35,850 nt of DNA, from NCBI GenBank assembly GCA_036446835.1, contig JAZFTT010000234.1:1-35850 (forward strand). The letters are read 5' to 3'. The notes beneath the pieces were generated by a model, which had not been told where the DNA came from, made no database searches, and was given only the letters and a program-made list of their open reading frames with translations. The position numbers and the translations under genes were made by a program. Shown here one piece after another: positions 6,226-35,850 of the stretch (the stretch's first letter is position 1; the number at the start of each line of letters is the position of its first letter). Origin of the DNA: Acidimicrobiia bacterium. GTDB lineage: Bacteria > Actinomycetota > Acidimicrobiia > Spongiisociales > ZC4RG35.

Positions 6226-6275
6226 CGAACCTGAGGTTGTTACGCCCGTATATGGGCGTAACAACCTCAGGTTCG
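6226..6275. repeat. 50-bp near-perfect palindrome (22-bp perfect arms), REP/MITE-like or bidirectional hairpin
   Basis: CGAACCTGAGGTTGTTACGCCC (6226-6247) - GTATAT - GGGCGTAACAACCTCAGGTTCG (6254-6275); the arms are exact reverse complements. Confidence 0.9.
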
Positions 6276-30327: not shown

Positions 30328-31619
30328 TGCGAGAGGCTTCCCATTCTTTGAGTGACCAACTCGGCGAAGCGTTCGCCACGCGCGGCGTAGGAGTCGAACT
30401 GGTCAAAGCTGGCGCAGCCTGGAGCCAGAAGCACCGTGTCACCGCTCACGGCCACCTGGGCAGCCATCTCAACCGCTATGTCCATAGTTTTTGCAAGTCT
30501 CCCCCGTTCGTCGGCAGTGGCCACGAGCCCCGGTCCCGCCTCACCTATGCCAATGAGAACTCGAACCCTCGGCTCGGTGGCAATCGGTGTCAGATCCAGG
30601 CCTTTGGGCAGACCTCCTGCGATCAGGATCACCGAGTCGTGTGCACGAATCGAGGAGAGGGCAGCATGGGGATTTGTTGCCTTGGAGTCGTCGATCCACC
30701 GGATTCCATTCGCCTCGTGGACAAGAGAACGTCGATGCGGTCCGGGTGAGTATCCGGTGGCACCCTTCACTACTGCCTCCTCCGTGGCCCCGATCCGCAA
30801 AGCCAAGGCCGCCGCCGAGGCGAGATTGGCCAGATGACTCGGGTCCCGGGATGTCAACTCGGTGATATCGATCACGACTTCTCCAACAACGAGCGCTCCT
30901 TCATGCACCCCGCCGCCCCCAACGGGAAGATGGGTTCCGGAGATCGGGTACGTCTCCGACGGGGCCGCCATCGCAAGTTCGGTGGCTCCCCCGTCGTCGC
31001 AGTCATAGACCAGAAGGTCGCTACTGGTCTGATTGGCGTAGATGCGTGCCTTCGACGATCGGTAGCTGTATTCAGACCCATGCCAGTCGAGGTGATCGGT
31101 GGCAACATTGGTTATCGCCGCGGCCTGCGGATGGAACGACTCGGTGAACCTGAGTTGGAAGCTGGAGACCTCCACAACCAGAGCGTCATATCCGTCATCG
31201 GCGAAGTCAGACAGCGGTGTTCCGATATTGCCTGTGGCGGGAGCGTTGAGACCCGAGGCGTCCAGCATGGCCGCCGTCGCCTCGGTAACACTGGTCTTGC
31301 CGTTGGTTCCGGTGATCGCGATCACCGGAACCTGCAAATGACGCCACGCATACTCGATCTCGCTCCACACCGGGATGCCCCATTCGAGAGCCTCGACGAT
31401 CGGCATGGAGCGCTCAGAGAAGCCGGGGCTCGCAACCACGACGTCAACGCCGTTCAGAAGCACCGGGTCCCAACCTCCGTTGGCGATGGCGAACCCCTCC
31501 GCCAGAGCCAGCGGAGACGGCTTCTCGTCGTAGATGGTGACCGAAGCCCCCTTTCTCCGTGCGAGACGACTCACAGCCAGACCCGAGACCCCGGCACCGA
31601 GAACGAGCAACCGGCTCAC
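30324..31619 (-). CDS. murD: UDP-N-acetylmuramoyl-L-alanine--D-glutamate ligase
   Basis: VLGAGVSG, SPG, ITGTNGKTS, GNIG, VEVSSFQL, DHLDWH, DDSKATN, LLAPGCASFDQF; real start GTG 31619 overlapping the mraY stop. The 810-aa ORF is a spurious upstream extension. Confidence 0.96.
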   Translation of the reverse strand: MSRLLVLGAGVSGLAVSRLARRKGASVTIYDEKPSPLALAEGFAIANGGWDPVLLNGVDVVVASPGFSERSMPIVEALEWGIPVWSEIEYAWRHLQVPVIAITGTNGKTSVTEATAAMLDASGLNAPATGNIGTPLSDFADDGYDALVVEVSSFQLRFTESFHPQAAAITNVATDHLDWHGSEYSYRSSKARIYANQTSSDLLVYDCDDGGATELAMAAPSETYPISGTHLPVGGGGVHEGALVVGEVVIDITELTSRDPSHLANLASAAALALRIGATEEAVVKGATGYSPGPHRRSLVHEANGIRWIDDSKATNPHAALSSIRAHDSVILIAGGLPKGLDLTPIATEPRVRVLIGIGEAGPGLVATADERGRLAKTMDIAVEMAAQVAVSGDTVLLAPGCASFDQFDSYAARGERFAELVTQRMGSLSQ

Positions 31620-32665
31620 AGGAGATCCGAGAGTCGAAGGAAGTCCCCATAGAAGAACCCGAGACCCAGAGCTACGCCGATGCCGGTGAGAATCCAGAAT
31701 CGGATCACGACGGTGGTCTCTGGCCAACCACCAAGATCGAAGTGAAAGTGGAGCGGCGACATCCGGAAGATTCGTTTTCCGGTCAGCTTGAAACTGGCGA
31801 CCTGGAGTATCACTGACAGCACCTCTGCAACGTAGATCCCACCGAGGACAGCCAACAAAAGATGGGTGTTGGTGAGAAGAGCCAGGGCAGCGAGCAGTCC
31901 GCCCACGGCCTGGCTGCCGACATCGCCCATGAATACTTTCGCCGGAGGGGCGTTCCACCACAAAAACCCGAGCAGGGCCCCGAACATCGCAGATGAGACC
32001 ATGGCGAGCTCGAGCGGGTCGACGCCCGCATAGAAATTCGGATTCCTGAACTGCCAGAAGGCAATCACCGTGTACGACGCGATCACCAACGACGACGAAC
32101 CGGCGGCGAGACCGTCCATGCCGTCCGCCAGGTTCACCCCATTGGCCGCTCCCGTGAGCATCAAGAGCACCCAGATGAAGAAGAAGGGCCCGAGGTCGAT
32201 CCCGAGTGGTCGGACGAAGGAGATTTCGGTAACCACGCCGGCGAGCGATGCGCCCCATGCGAAGAGCGCAGCAATCACCAACTGCAAACCAAACTTCACC
32301 GACCTCGACAAACCGAGGCTTCGTTTCCTCTTGTATTTCGCCCAATCGTCGGCAAACCCGACAAGAGCCATCCCGGTCAAGGCAAACACCACCAACAACC
32401 CACCGGGGCTGAACGGTCTCATCTCGAGGCTGAAACCGGTATCGGGACTCCATATCCGAATGTGCGCCAGGAGCCATCCGAAGATCGCAGCGCTCACAAA
32501 AACCACCCCACCCATCGTTGGGGTGCCCTGCTTGTGCGCGTGACCCTTGATGTCCTCCTGGACAAACTGGCCAATCTCCCGCCTGCGTAGGAATCGAATC
32601 GCGTACGGCGTCCCGAATATCGACGCTGTCAGGCCCACGGCCCCAGCAATCAGAAGGGGAATCAC
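31616..32665 (-). CDS. mraY: Phospho-N-acetylmuramoyl-pentapeptide transferase
   Basis: H..KQGTPTMGG, GFADD, NGVNLADGMDGL, WWN.PPAKVFMGDVGS, RMSPLHFHF; start GTG 32665 (VIPLLIAG). Confidence 0.96.
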   Translation of the reverse strand: MIPLLIAGAVGLTASIFGTPYAIRFLRRREIGQFVQEDIKGHAHKQGTPTMGGVVFVSAAIFGWLLAHIRIWSPDTGFSLEMRPFSPGGLLVVFALTGMALVGFADDWAKYKRKRSLGLSRSVKFGLQLVIAALFAWGASLAGVVTEISFVRPLGIDLGPFFFIWVLLMLTGAANGVNLADGMDGLAAGSSSLVIASYTVIAFWQFRNPNFYAGVDPLELAMVSSAMFGALLGFLWWNAPPAKVFMGDVGSQAVGGLLAALALLTNTHLLLAVLGGIYVAEVLSVILQVASFKLTGKRIFRMSPLHFHFDLGGWPETTVVIRFWILTGIGVALGLGFFYGDFLRLSDLL

Positions 32666-32832
32666 TAGTGGCCCGCTCCGCAAGTACGCCGACGTTTCGA
32701 CGGGCAGATGACGCCTCTCCCGGCGTCCTCCGCCTCGACGCATCTCGCCGATGCACCTTCGTTGTGCGTCCTAGGGAGCGACGCCCCTGCCCCGCCCAAA
32801 CGCGCTACCGGACTTACGCAACAGACCACTAG
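32665..32832 (-). mobile_element. MITE-like non-autonomous inverted-repeat element (168 bp, CTAG-bounded), folding as a long hairpin on the minus strand
   Basis: Ends CTAGTGGCCCGCTCCGCAAGT and ACTTACGCAACAGACCACTAG are 16/21 inverted repeats. Pairing continues inward about 55 nt per arm. CTAG occurs at both ends; excision leaving one CTAG restores murE-TAG/GTG-mraY overlap. No transposase ORF. Confidence 0.75.
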
Positions 32833-34328
32833 TCCATGCTCCTTGAACCGGGGGCGGAATCGGCGGACATCCGACGACGGCTCAAAGCTTCGCGAGCTAC
32901 TTCGCGATCATCGAATGGTCTCATCTCGTCCGCGATTTCTTGGTGCGACTCGTGACCCCGACCAAGGATCAGAACGATGTCACCGTCGTCAGCCGCATTG
33001 ATCGCCTTCGAGATGGCAGACGAGCGATCCAGATCCAGAATCGACTCTGTTGAAGGGTCAAGACCGGACACGACAGCATCGGCGATTGCCTGAGGATCTT
33101 CGGAACGGGGATTGTCAGTTGTGACCACGGCCAGGTCTGCTCGTGAGACTGCCGAGCCCATCAAAGGCCGCTTCGCCTGATCTCGGTCCCCGCCCGCCCC
33201 GATCAGCGCGATCACACGGCGCCCTCCCAGAGCCCGTGCTGTCGCAATTGCCACCGAAATCCCCTCGGGGGTGTGGGCGTAGTCGACAATGACCCCGACC
33301 GAATCATTCCCAGAGACGACTTCGAATCTTCCTGGGACACCTTTGAGAGATTGGAGTCCGGCGACCACCTCGTCGAAGCCGATACCGGCAGCCAGACCGC
33401 AGGCTGCTCCCAGCACTGCATTGTCTACGTTGAAGAATCCCACAACGGGAACCATCAGCTCGGCGGAGCCCCATGGTGTGATCAGTCTCAGCGACGTACC
33501 CTGCGAGGTCGGCACAATGTCGGCGTGGCGGATCTCGCCATCCGATCCGACGCGTAGAACAGAGCCGTGGAACGTCCGAGCGATCTCCTCTCCGACCTCG
33601 TCGTCGACGTTGACGACAGCAGTTCCCACTTCGTACTCATCAAACAGCCTCCGTTTGGCGCTCCGGTAGCTCTCCATGTCACCGTGAAAGTCGAGATGAT
33701 CCTGAGAGAGGTTGGTAAACGCAGCCACGGCAAAACTCGTCGCCGCGACCCGGCCCAGAACGAGTGCATGAGACGAGACTTCCGCGGAGACCAGCTCGGT
33801 TCCGCTGTCGCGCATCCGTGCCAGCAGTCGCTGAAAATCCGATGCCTCGGGCGTGGTGTGAATCGATCTGACGCCTTTGTCGCCGATGCAGGTATGGATG
33901 GTGCCGATAAGACCGGTCGTCAGCCCTGCCGATGACGCGATCGATTCGATGTAGTGAGTGACTGTCGTCTTGCCATTCGTCCCGGTGACACCGATCACCT
34001 TCATCGTCCGGGACGGATCACCATGAACACGCGCGGCTAGCGGCCCCAGAGCGCTCCTTGTGTCCGGAACAACAATCTCCATGACGCTCGATCCGGTCGG
34101 ATGATCCACACAAACGGCCGGCGAGCCGGCTTCCACGGCTCTGGAAATGAAGCCATGTCCGTCGACGATGGCGCCTCGAACGGCCACGAAGAGGATGTCC
34201 TCTCCGGCCTGGCGGGAGTCGTGGGTGACATCAACGACCGAAACCTCGGTTTGTCCTGTTTCTGGTGACACAAGATGCCCACCCACCACATCAGCGAGTT
34301 GCTGCACGCTGCTAGCGCTGATAGCCAT
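32829..34328 (-). CDS. murE: UDP-N-acetylmuramoyl-L-alanyl-D-glutamate--2,6-diaminopimelate ligase
   Basis: HDSR, GVTGTNGKTT, TTPE, EVSSHAL, FTNLSQDHLDFH, VDYAHTP, DNPR (diaminopimelate-type motif), GRGHE..Q. Confidence 0.97.
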   Translation of the reverse strand: MAISASSVQQLADVVGGHLVSPETGQTEVSVVDVTHDSRQAGEDILFVAVRGAIVDGHGFISRAVEAGSPAVCVDHPTGSSVMEIVVPDTRSALGPLAARVHGDPSRTMKVIGVTGTNGKTTVTHYIESIASSAGLTTGLIGTIHTCIGDKGVRSIHTTPEASDFQRLLARMRDSGTELVSAEVSSHALVLGRVAATSFAVAAFTNLSQDHLDFHGDMESYRSAKRRLFDEYEVGTAVVNVDDEVGEEIARTFHGSVLRVGSDGEIRHADIVPTSQGTSLRLITPWGSAELMVPVVGFFNVDNAVLGAACGLAAGIGFDEVVAGLQSLKGVPGRFEVVSGNDSVGVIVDYAHTPEGISVAIATARALGGRRVIALIGAGGDRDQAKRPLMGSAVSRADLAVVTTDNPRSEDPQAIADAVVSGLDPSTESILDLDRSSAISKAINAADDGDIVLILGRGHESHQEIADEMRPFDDREVAREALSRRRMSADSAPGSRSMD

Positions 34329-35850
34329 CAGGGGTCACTCCGAGACGGTGCAAGGCTTGTTCCATCACCGAGGCAAAAACCGGTGCTGCGGACAATCCTC
34401 CCGTGCGGTAGTCAAACGAAGGCGCGTCGATGAGAACAGCGACAACGATCTTTGGATCGTTGATTGGCGCAATGCCCACGAACGAAGCTCTGGTCGTCTC
34501 CGTGTAGCGACCGTCGGCGCCAAGCTTGTTCGCCGTTCCCGTCTTCCCGCCGACCCGGTAGCCGTCGATGGCCGCCGCCGCCCCGGTACCTTTCTCGACC
34601 ACCGAAGCCAGCAACTCGCGCATGAGGAGCGCGGTGCCCGATGACACCACCCGTCTCGTTTGCATTCCAGCCACTTGCGTCTCTCCGTCTACGTCGGTCT
34701 TCGAGGACACCAGATGGGGAGTGATCCAGATGCCGTCATTCCCGATAGCGGCGTAGGCGGCAGCCATCTGGAGCGGTGTGACCGCGACCGAGTACCCGAT
34801 GGCGGCCGACGCCCAACAAGTCATGCATCCCGCCGCGAAGTTGAGGATTCCGGCAGCCTCGACGGTGTAGTCGATGCCCGTCTTGGCACCAAGCCCGAAG
34901 GCCTCGATGTATTGGATCAGACGGTCCTGACCGAGTCTCTGGGCGATCTTGATCGTCCCGATGTTCGACGACTTCGTGAAAATCTGAGCCACACTCATGT
35001 CCTCGGTGGCATGCTTCTTGAAATCGCGGTAACACCCAAATAGCTCGTCATCAGCGAAACGACAGGCGTCTTCTCTCAGTTCCAATTCGTAGGAGACTTG
35101 CGGGATGACAGTCCCGATCGACACCTCGCCTTCTTCGAGCGCCGCCGCCACCGTTATCAGTTTCTGGGTTGACCCCGGCTCATAGATTCCACGAACGGTG
35201 AAGTTGGAGAACGCTCTACACGAAACGGGATCCTCGGCATCATCACAGCGCGGATCCTGTGTTTGTCTGGTCACCGGATCGAAGACCGGGGCGCCAGCCA
35301 TGGCGAGTACCGCGCCGGTCTCCACTTCGAGGACCACAACCCAGCACGAGAGGGCATGGGTCTTCTCCAGGGCGAGGAGACATTCCTGTTGTGCCTGGTA
35401 CTGGAGAGGAAGGTCGATGGTCGTGTTCAGATCGACGCCGGGGATCGCAGGGACTATCTGGCTGAACCCCTGAGGGATGACACGTCCTTGAAGGTCCCTC
35501 TCGAACTCGGCTTTGCCGGGAGTGCCTGCCAACTCATCGTCATAGACCAGTTCGAGGCCCTCCTGGCCGTCGCCATCTATGTTGACGAACCCGGTGACAC
35601 GACTGGCCACGACGCCCGCCGGGTAGATCCGCGTCGGCTCAGGATGGGAGTAGACGCCGCGGATCTCGAGACCAAGAACCTCGTTGGCCACCACATCCTC
35701 GACCTGTCGCTTGATATAGACGAAGTCACGGTCGCTGGTGAGACGCTCGTAGAGAACATCGGTATCGGCCCCAAGCAGTCCCCCGATCTGTTGGGCAACC
35801 CACAACGGCTCCTCGATCTGATCGGGCACGGCAAAGATGCTCTGGGCTTG
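34312..35850 (-). CDS. ftsI: Class B penicillin-binding protein FtsI/PBP3 (N-terminus outside the window)
   Basis: R.YP, G.EGLE, TID..LQ pedestal motifs; transpeptidase motifs SxxK (EPGSTQK), SSN, KTG; frame open to the window end. Confidence 0.95.
   Translation of the reverse strand, partial: QAQSIFAVPDQIEEPLWVAQQIGGLLGADTDVLYERLTSDRDFVYIKRQVEDVVANEVLGLEIRGVYSHPEPTRIYPAGVVASRVTGFVNIDGDGQEGLELVYDDELAGTPGKAEFERDLQGRVIPQGFSQIVPAIPGVDLNTTIDLPLQYQAQQECLLALEKTHALSCWVVVLEVETGAVLAMAGAPVFDPVTRQTQDPRCDDAEDPVSCRAFSNFTVRGIYEPGSTQKLITVAAALEEGEVSIGTVIPQVSYELELREDACRFADDELFGCYRDFKKHATEDMSVAQIFTKSSNIGTIKIAQRLGQDRLIQYIEAFGLGAKTGIDYTVEAAGILNFAAGCMTCWASAAIGYSVAVTPLQMAAAYAAIGNDGIWITPHLVSSKTDVDGETQVAGMQTRRVVSSGTALLMRELLASVVEKGTGAAAAIDGYRVGGKTGTANKLGADGRYTETTRASFVGIAPINDPKIVVAVLIDAPSFDYRTGGLSAAPVFASVMEQALHRLGVTPDGYQR

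Follow-up and report, generated by a model that had tools for sequence, protein, structure and literature searches.

A TA-flanked, non-coding 162-bp mobile repeat with a predicted one-strand fold between a Mur ligase gene and mraY of an Acidimicrobiia bacterium

The question of how ERIC- and Correia-type repeats move is decades old. ERIC is presumably the same repeat as the catalogued element MITEEc1_IS630. An entry of this name is given in the accessible part of a MITE catalogue (PMC11602168) and, according to the available text of a 2007 review, mobilisation of ERIC- or Correia-type repeats by a transposase had no experimental support at that time (PMC2229807). In the accessible portions of two reviews, the effects of ERIC are said to depend on orientation and Correia transcripts to be cleaved by RNase III (PMC2229807, PMC3049150), and the former also reports an IHF site in the long Correia element. 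For the IS630 family, the available text of one paper describes a purified transposase (ISY100) that acts alone on double-stranded ends, so that no need for a fold is known (PMC2170065), and, as far as the accessible part of another goes, IS630 is among the families with orientation bias in few or no chromosomes (PMC3971601). A literature search, outside which most subscription papers and supplements lay, found no description of the family analysed here, of a core shared with Correia and ERIC elements, or of replication-linked orientation of such repeats; the catalogue of PMC11602168 may hold sequences of this family.

The analysed window, i.e., the whole stretch of 35,850 nucleotides from an Acidimicrobiia bacterium (genome G000), contains a 162-bp non-coding and in all likelihood mobile repeat with TA on both sides, located between the stop of murE and the start of mraY on the minus strand of the dcw operon. 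The first-pass annotation had placed an element at 32665..32832; the element is real, and its body was corrected to 32668-32829 (minus strand), the limits being set by 16 full copies from the same genome; folding predicts a one-strand rod for it, and the model R1, built from 25 copies, matches it at 159 bits. The dinucleotides TA at 32830-32831 (upstream) and 32666-32667 (downstream, directly 5' of the mraY GTG) probably represent a target duplication. Read along the minus strand, the 5' arm (32775-32829), whose first ~20 nt correspond to an IS630-type terminal repeat as judged by matches to IS630 ends, is followed by the 5' strand of a conserved core (32757-32774, model positions 58-75) comprising an outer module and a tandem G·A zipper, by an apical helix with a variable loop (32737-32757, model positions 75-95, the helix being 96.3% paired), by the 3' strand of the core (32721-32737, model positions 95-111), and by the 3' arm (32668-32720). 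Both core strands were delimited by column counts and covariation, and the pairing of the two arms is indicated by folding and covariation.

The upstream neighbour on the minus strand (32829-34328; Pfam PF01225, PF08245, PF02875) encodes a Mur ligase, by size and position MurE, and the downstream neighbour is mraY (31616-32665, minus strand; PF00953 and PF10555, as well as the gene call), with its GTG start at 32663-32665. The TAG stop of the Mur ligase gene consists of the upstream TA and the first G of the element. A stop codon of a gene is made by an element end at 135 of 274 sites (63 sense, 72 antisense). From the penicillin-binding protein gene to mraY (window 32829-35829) there is only one Mur ligase gene, in an interval where both murE and murF are usual. 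Elsewhere in the window, a near-perfect 50-nt palindrome is located between two genes (6226-6275), and at least 10 more copies of 42-55 nt with 84-100% identity occur on other contigs of the same genome; this palindrome is a second, REP-like repeat family unrelated to the 162-bp element.

The 162-bp element is very probably a mobile repeat of the IS630 type. In addition to the full copies, which have a nearly fixed length of 159-167 nt, its genome contains one truncated copy and several fragments, and among 242 copies two were called inside a gene. The murE-mraY site is filled in G000 and in the congeners G003 and G005 and empty in G001, G002, G004, G006, and G007 (five of seven congeners); translation of the empty junctions places the TGA stop of the upstream gene in overlap with the GTG. 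TA flanks both ends here and in most copies, and four empty junctions show CG, CA, CT, or AA in that place; since the two bases before the GTG vary among empty sites, the TA duplication was deduced from the flanks. C precedes TA at 102 of 140 left ends and 81 of 123 right ends. Copies are 70-95% alike, indicating a slow turnover. Copies of ~55 nt that have lost the core and keep both ends were found in the same genome (C121:16457-16510, C259:2362-2416, and C202:4205-4259); the first two have one deletion junction in common at different sites, and the core may therefore be dispensable for moving.

As for the terminal repeats, 25 IS630 loci were examined, of which 19 gave an end pair, usable or partly usable in 16 cases. 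The ends of two of these elements (L482 and L488) agree with the family ends at 18-19 of 20 positions and those of four others (L197, L201, L478, and L479) at 17-18 of 20 on at least one end, while control CTAGTG sites in G000 mostly score 11-13 and the high scorers among them are largely the elements themselves. The IS630 end in L200 resembles the left end of the window's copy. The IS630 ends show no G-U polarity (38 vs 35), and the core was absent near the ends at all 19 loci with an end pair. IS630 elements, recognised by a DDE_3 match, were detected in 10 of 40 carrier genomes, among which neither G000 nor G063 is included. The element had been proposed as a candidate for an undescribed system; it is not free-standing, the ends being of IS630 type and the core words common to Correia and, in part, to ERIC elements.

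Folding with RNA energies gives -103.3 kcal/mol for the minus strand of the element (z -5.9), a value reached by none of 200 shuffles, and -69.1 kcal/mol for the plus strand (z -1.9), reached by 7 of 200; DNA energies yield -41.9 (z -3.0) for the minus and -28.9 (z -0.5) for the plus strand. The lower energy that the first-pass annotation expected for the minus strand is thus borne out, and the nested helices it listed are present in the predicted minus-strand structure. Its four wobble differences out of five in the terminal 21 bp appear, when read by hand off the fold, as four U-G pairs and one G·G, and its overall bias of about nine agrees with 10 G-U-type differences and one A-C-type difference in a structure-free alignment of the left and right arms. 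The direct repeat AGGACGC does occur on both core strands. The purine-rich strands flanking the apical helix had been taken as unpaired, which they probably are not: single Watson-Crick pairs alternate there with tandem G·A pairs and covary, and tandem G·A pairs are not scored by the folding programs. The first-pass annotation had recognised no named Rfam family in the element; none matched at gathering or E-value thresholds, and Rfam 15 gave no match in the window at the gathering threshold (best E 0.73, 18 bits vs 268 needed).

More evidence for the fold was obtained from an alignment of 101 copies with a mean identity of 62%. In this alignment, which was fitted to the model so that the pairing figures lean upward, 91.8% of cells are paired (35-43% in slid controls), and two-sided changes are found at 49 of 53 pairs, providing the covariation among copies that had been suggested as a check. 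The better-folding strand is identical in all 101 copies with RNA energies and in 100 with DNA energies. Differences between the arms are of the G-U type in 696 cases and of the A-C type in 116, and the former lead in 98 of 99 copies. The apical loops mostly have 3-6 nt and belong to no one type. The first-pass claim that a one-strand structure is under selection is supported by the pairing, the covarying pairs, and the constant strand, and it is very likely correct.

In the core, the two strands can be read as a zipper consisting of G61-C107, G62·A106, A63·G105, C64-G104, G65·A103, A67·G102, 68-101, 69·100, A70·G99, C71-G98, G72·A97, A73/74·G96, and G75-C95. Among the 101 copies, the pair 68-101 is chiefly C-G (53 copies) or G-C (46), the pair 69·100 G·A (63) or A·C (30), and the pair 63·105 A·G (87) or C·A (10). 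A tree from which the columns of these core pairs had been excluded shows 12, 12, and 6 changes at the three pairs, respectively, counts that may have been raised by recombination among the copies. Exchanges of G·A for A·C and of A·G for C·A are sheared-pair exchanges known from isostericity tables of RNA, and the G·A tandems are probably sheared pairs, given the covariation and these rules. Since the pattern through which many of the 101 copies had been collected leaves no freedom at positions 70-104, a second set of 102 copies, mostly found with the model, was read. Its steadiest parts are the outer module (CAAGG[A/C] facing [G/A]ACGC[A/C]G) and the inner CG·AG motif, and in G121, G305, and G279, which represent other subfamilies, Watson-Crick helices take the place of the middle of the zipper. 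The outer module was found with both its halves in 202 of 274 independent copies, and the 5' arm measures 53-56 nt in 47 of 49 strict pattern matches. The non-canonical internal core noted in the window's copy is therefore conserved and covarying, and, on the question of whether it occurs within different terminal repeats, the same core types were found with many end types. Kissing-loop/cruciform and kink-turn readings, weighed by eye, were dropped because the top covarying pairs fit the rod.

Several copies deviate from this layout. L074, L129, and L443 carry small additional hairpin-like inserts on the 3' side of the outer module or close to it, suggesting a tolerated branch point. Three copies of 181-183 nt (L439, L449, and L599), from two different phyla, have ~10 extra core pairs with an A-run facing a T-run. 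In L073 and L142, what seems to be a different GC-rich hairpin repeat, similar at both loci, stands in place of the element's right half, the exchange lying within the 3' core strand. The window's copy itself has T at 32773 (model position 59), within the outer module, where the family has A; this T creates a third CTAG inside the element, and the orthologue in G003 retains A.

The model R1 matched 11 of 120 other genomes of the class, 11 of 149 genomes of the phylum (including three unpublished genomes, which enter the tally only), and 14 of 101 genomes of the phylum of G159, whose record is titled Planctomycetota; 13 copies from this second phylum were read, and the outer-module pattern was present in 10. 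With the strict core pattern, 115 loci were recovered in 28 of the 64 parts into which the genome collection is divided; their titles are almost without exception Acidimicrobiia or Actinomycetota, which puts the host in Acidimicrobiia. A search with the core pattern over 401 Actinomycetota genomes found 13 with a match and added nothing on orientation. Two subfamily queries of a plasmid collection gave no match. Record titles were considered as evidence of cross-phylum spread, and several were rejected. At the 'Boseongicola' locus L070 and the 'Gammaproteobacteria' loci L066 and L105, the flanking proteins are 90-97% and 66-75% identical, respectively, to proteins of G000, and a draw from the class of the 'Burkholderiales' genome G166 brought up the Acidimicrobiia matches again; only the phylum draw of G159 gave a different set. 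Judging by flanking proteins or class draw, L070, L066, L105, and L129, titled Boseongicola, Gammaproteobacteria, or Burkholderiales, appear to be Acidimicrobiia.

The orientation of the copies relative to replication was analysed in G063, an assembly of two contigs that is 99% complete, with replichores taken from four-fold-site skew. On the first contig (15 copies), the copies lie on the plus strand at 42-305 kb, on the minus strand at 662-2002 kb, and again on the plus strand at 2404-2458 kb, and all six copies of the second contig are on the minus strand; the strand switches fall across dnaA (450 kb) and close to where the terminus is expected. In 21 of 21 copies, the folding strand is lagging-type, i.e., on the leading-strand template (run test p 0.003 on the first contig; the skew of its last segment is weak, z -1.1), and, for comparison with transcription, it is antisense in 9 of 11. 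The closed chromosome G165 has six of nine full copies of the lagging type, contigs of G000 with clear skew are divided 6 to 2, and per-locus skew calls assign 146 of 222 copies to this type, a noisy figure in which kin are not independent. Orientation is mixed at short range in G029, G073, and G159, the short deleted copies show an unclear strand pattern (two leading, one lagging), and the window's copy has the minority, leading-type orientation (z +6.3). Among known repeats, with replichores set from dnaA alone, ERIC copies are divided 7 to 7 in one E. coli chromosome and Correia copies 28 to 18 (p 0.18) in one N. gonorrhoeae chromosome. A 2.17-Mb record filed as a plasmid (NZ_CP119140.1) contains dnaA together with numerous Correia elements and appears to be a complete gonococcal chromosome. 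Overall, the orientation of the family tends to follow replication and not transcription, the bias being partial. It is opposite to that expected for a donor on the lagging-strand template and may therefore reflect loss rather than insertion; on the data, the bias may arise at insertion or by faster loss of copies whose folding strand is the lagging-strand template.

The reading preferred here, held tentatively at a probability of roughly 40%, is that the element is a gene-less, IS630-mobilised MITE whose one-strand fold, probably in single-stranded DNA at the replication fork, serves its own copying and not host mRNA. IS630 transposases supplied in trans would be the likely movers, and the rod of one strand would have been selected for the copying of the element, probably as single-stranded DNA exposed at forks. 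The core module, which keeps a constant spacing of ~53-56 nt to the ends, may bind a protein, be it a host factor or the transposase itself; it would remain the same as the arms adapt to different IS630 subfamilies. With a single folding strand, a copy would be safe as long as this strand is on the leading-strand template, and copies in the other orientation would arise less frequently or disappear sooner. The chief difficulties for this reading are the ability of ISY100 transposase to act alone on double-stranded ends, the short copies that lack the core, and the RNA-like share of G-U pairs; the scarcity of IS630 in the carrier genomes and the partial nature of the replication bias also speak against it.

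G-U pairs make up 14% of paired cells (693 of 4853), which looks like RNA and counts against a fold in single-stranded DNA. One alternative is that a folded RNA acts in mobilisation, either by binding the transposase or a host protein and bringing it to the element, or by being copied back into DNA and integrated at TA. The G-U pairs stand at fixed positions (76-94 in 91 of 101 copies), the swaps in the core correspond to the sheared-pair exchanges familiar from RNA, and the gap between the strands is wider with RNA than with DNA energies. However, no promoter-like site was found near the window's copy, and a reverse transcriptase domain, detected in 7 of 27 carriers vs 2 of 29 genomes without a family match (p 0.07), was not detected in G063 with its 21 copies, where orientation also tracks replication (21 of 21) better than transcription (9 of 11 antisense). 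An RNA route is considered unlikely.

As for a role in host mRNA, such as a processing site, a stabiliser, or a translational coupler, some features of the murE-mraY site speak in its favour. The window's copy is sense, i.e., its folding strand is the mRNA strand, and the repeat is kept in three species, where it differs from its orthologues by 5.6%, compared with 16-22% at four-fold sites. A GGAG at 32676-32679 in the 3' arm precedes the mraY start by 10 nt, and the two closest paralogues (L021 and L517) have GGAA instead. The predicted rod would bring the murE stop beside the mraY start and cover the GGAG, and a ribosome terminating there would presumably unpair the stem at its base. At this one site, the element might couple termination on murE to initiation on mraY. 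Involvement of RNase E with ERIC and of RNase III with Correia has been reported, and the orientation-dependent effects of the former and the RNase III cleavage described in PMC2229807 and PMC3049150 are in line with such a role. The family as a whole behaves otherwise. Genes around the copies were called with a codon model that reproduced the Pfam-confirmed dcw genes of the window, where it was validated. According to these calls, the copies between 135 co-directional gene pairs (from 274 independent sites) comprise 48 with a sense and 87 with an antisense folding strand (p 0.001), and the G-U content is ~7 per copy in every orientation. The first-pass annotation had tied the wobble bias to the mRNA strand, had considered a domesticated cis-regulator or an RNase III site, and had named random orientation relative to transcription as an observation that would speak against its reading; for the family, antisense copies being the commoner, these proposals find no support. 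In addition, the site is empty in five of seven congeners, and private changes are as frequent in the core (1.8%) as in the arms (2.0%). A host-kept mRNA element is therefore quite unlikely, and a local effect at murE-mraY alone would not explain the family.

The slow divergence of resident copies bears on the same question. Twelve flank-sharing pairs were collected, of which four were spurious and two repeated the murE-mraY site; at the six sites kept, divergence amounts to 0.09-0.42 of the third-position rate (~0.48 for intergenic DNA), whatever the orientation, which speaks against a function confined to mRNA. Resident copies diverge by 5.9% and ordinary intergenic DNA by 10.9% (p 0.03). 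This is not what pure selfish decay predicts and could result from constraint in place, gene conversion, or arm-to-arm correction.

Arm-to-arm correction is also part of an explanation without structural selection, in which template switching between the arms maintains the rod, strand-biased mutation yields the G-U excess, and the core is shared by ancestry only. Private changes do lean towards C>T and A>G on the transcribed strand, including core and unpaired sites (22:23 in sense vs 14:46 in antisense copies, p 0.008). Nevertheless, this skew is ~1.5-fold and flips with orientation, whereas the 6-fold polarity of the family does not flip. An early strong effect of orientation on private changes (14:2 vs 8:22) weakened once further copies were included (19:12 vs 27:39, p 0.08) and was set aside. 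Relative to the subfamily consensus, private stem transitions are almost even (85 to G-U and 73 to A-C, beside 136 transversions) while the standing differences are 696 vs 116, and the polarity is thus inherited from source copies. Copying between arms cannot account for an isolated covarying pair amid G·A tandems or for the change of A·G to C·A, and the module persists in the second phylum, in Correia, and in ERIC elements; the absence of structural selection is therefore distinctly improbable. An argument based on mismatch cleavage by NucS was dropped, no NucS match having been found in G000. It is very improbable that the core is a double-stranded DNA site, e.g., for a bending protein that joins the ends of a 160-bp element: the nearly fixed length and the IHF site reported for Correia in the available text of PMC2229807 fit such a site, which predicts neither covariation between the halves on one strand nor G-U polarity.

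A broader proposal goes beyond the preferred reading of an IS630-mobilised MITE folding at the fork. ERIC, Correia, and the present family might belong to a single superfamily of non-coding parasites, ancient and spread across phyla, whose members move as a folded single strand at the fork, with a universal internal-loop module recruiting the mover and interchangeable arms borrowing IS630 transposases. We regard this as speculative and rather doubtful; if true, a family of cut-and-paste DDE transposases would have a single-strand route, and the multiplication of ERIC and Correia repeats would be explained. The family offers test pieces, namely a module with compensatory variants, IS630 transposases with ends matching at 18-19 of 20 positions, and a prediction on fork direction. 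It also gives a caution: from G-U polarity and covariation in a repeat, an mRNA regulator cannot be concluded.

Compared with described systems, the family shares C-TA-G targets and matching ends with IS630/ISY100 elements, which differ in encoding a transposase, in lacking G-U polarity and the core, and in a published orientation bias that is weak or mixed in the accessible part of PMC3971601. REP/REPIN-RAYT and IS200/IS605 elements are similar in one-strand hairpin logic and slow turnover, and IS200/IS605 also in replication-linked orientation, as described in the available text of PMC3971601; the family differs from them in its IS630-type ends and target and in its lagging-type folding strand, and no Y1 transposase (PF01797) was matched in G000, which is 81% complete. 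RUP of Streptococcus pneumoniae and IS630-related MITEs likewise have TA targets and ends like those of co-occurring IS630 elements according to the accessible text of PMC2229807; unlike these, with RUP compared by description only, the family combines one core with the ends of many IS630 subfamilies, and with a G+C of 0.66 it lacks the A+T-richness described there for TA-targeting IS630-related MITEs. The module was not seen in four BOX-type loci.

The closest relations are found with ERIC and Correia, a likeness that was tested on sequences. ERIC (IRU, RU-1) of enterobacteria is a TA-ended rod. In E. coli, the better-folding strand is the same in all 10 copies, the differences between arms are G-U in 17 cases and A-C in none, and a relaxed outer-module pattern is present in 6 of the 10; it differs from the family in its length of 127 bp, short terminal repeats, another inner core, and the even orientation relative to replication (7 to 7). 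Correia/NEMIS elements, analysed as 11 distinct full-length copies whose identity as Neisseria was confirmed, are TA-flanked rods folding end to end. The pattern of core words was taken from the family consensus, which 43 of 101 members match exactly; with this pattern, all four words occur in order on one strand in 5 of the 11 Correia copies and in none of 20,000 shuffles. The five copies have a one-base spacer on each side, and four more copies of 155 or 106 nt deviate from the pattern at one base. Pair 63·105 is present in its C·A variant. On the other hand, Correia elements are AT-rich, have near-perfect terminal repeats, a weak strand gap (1-8 kcal/mol), and a shorter zipper. The model R1 scores them at only 11-19 bits and does not align their core, so that homology over the full length was not found and what Correia elements have in common with the present family is the module and not family membership.
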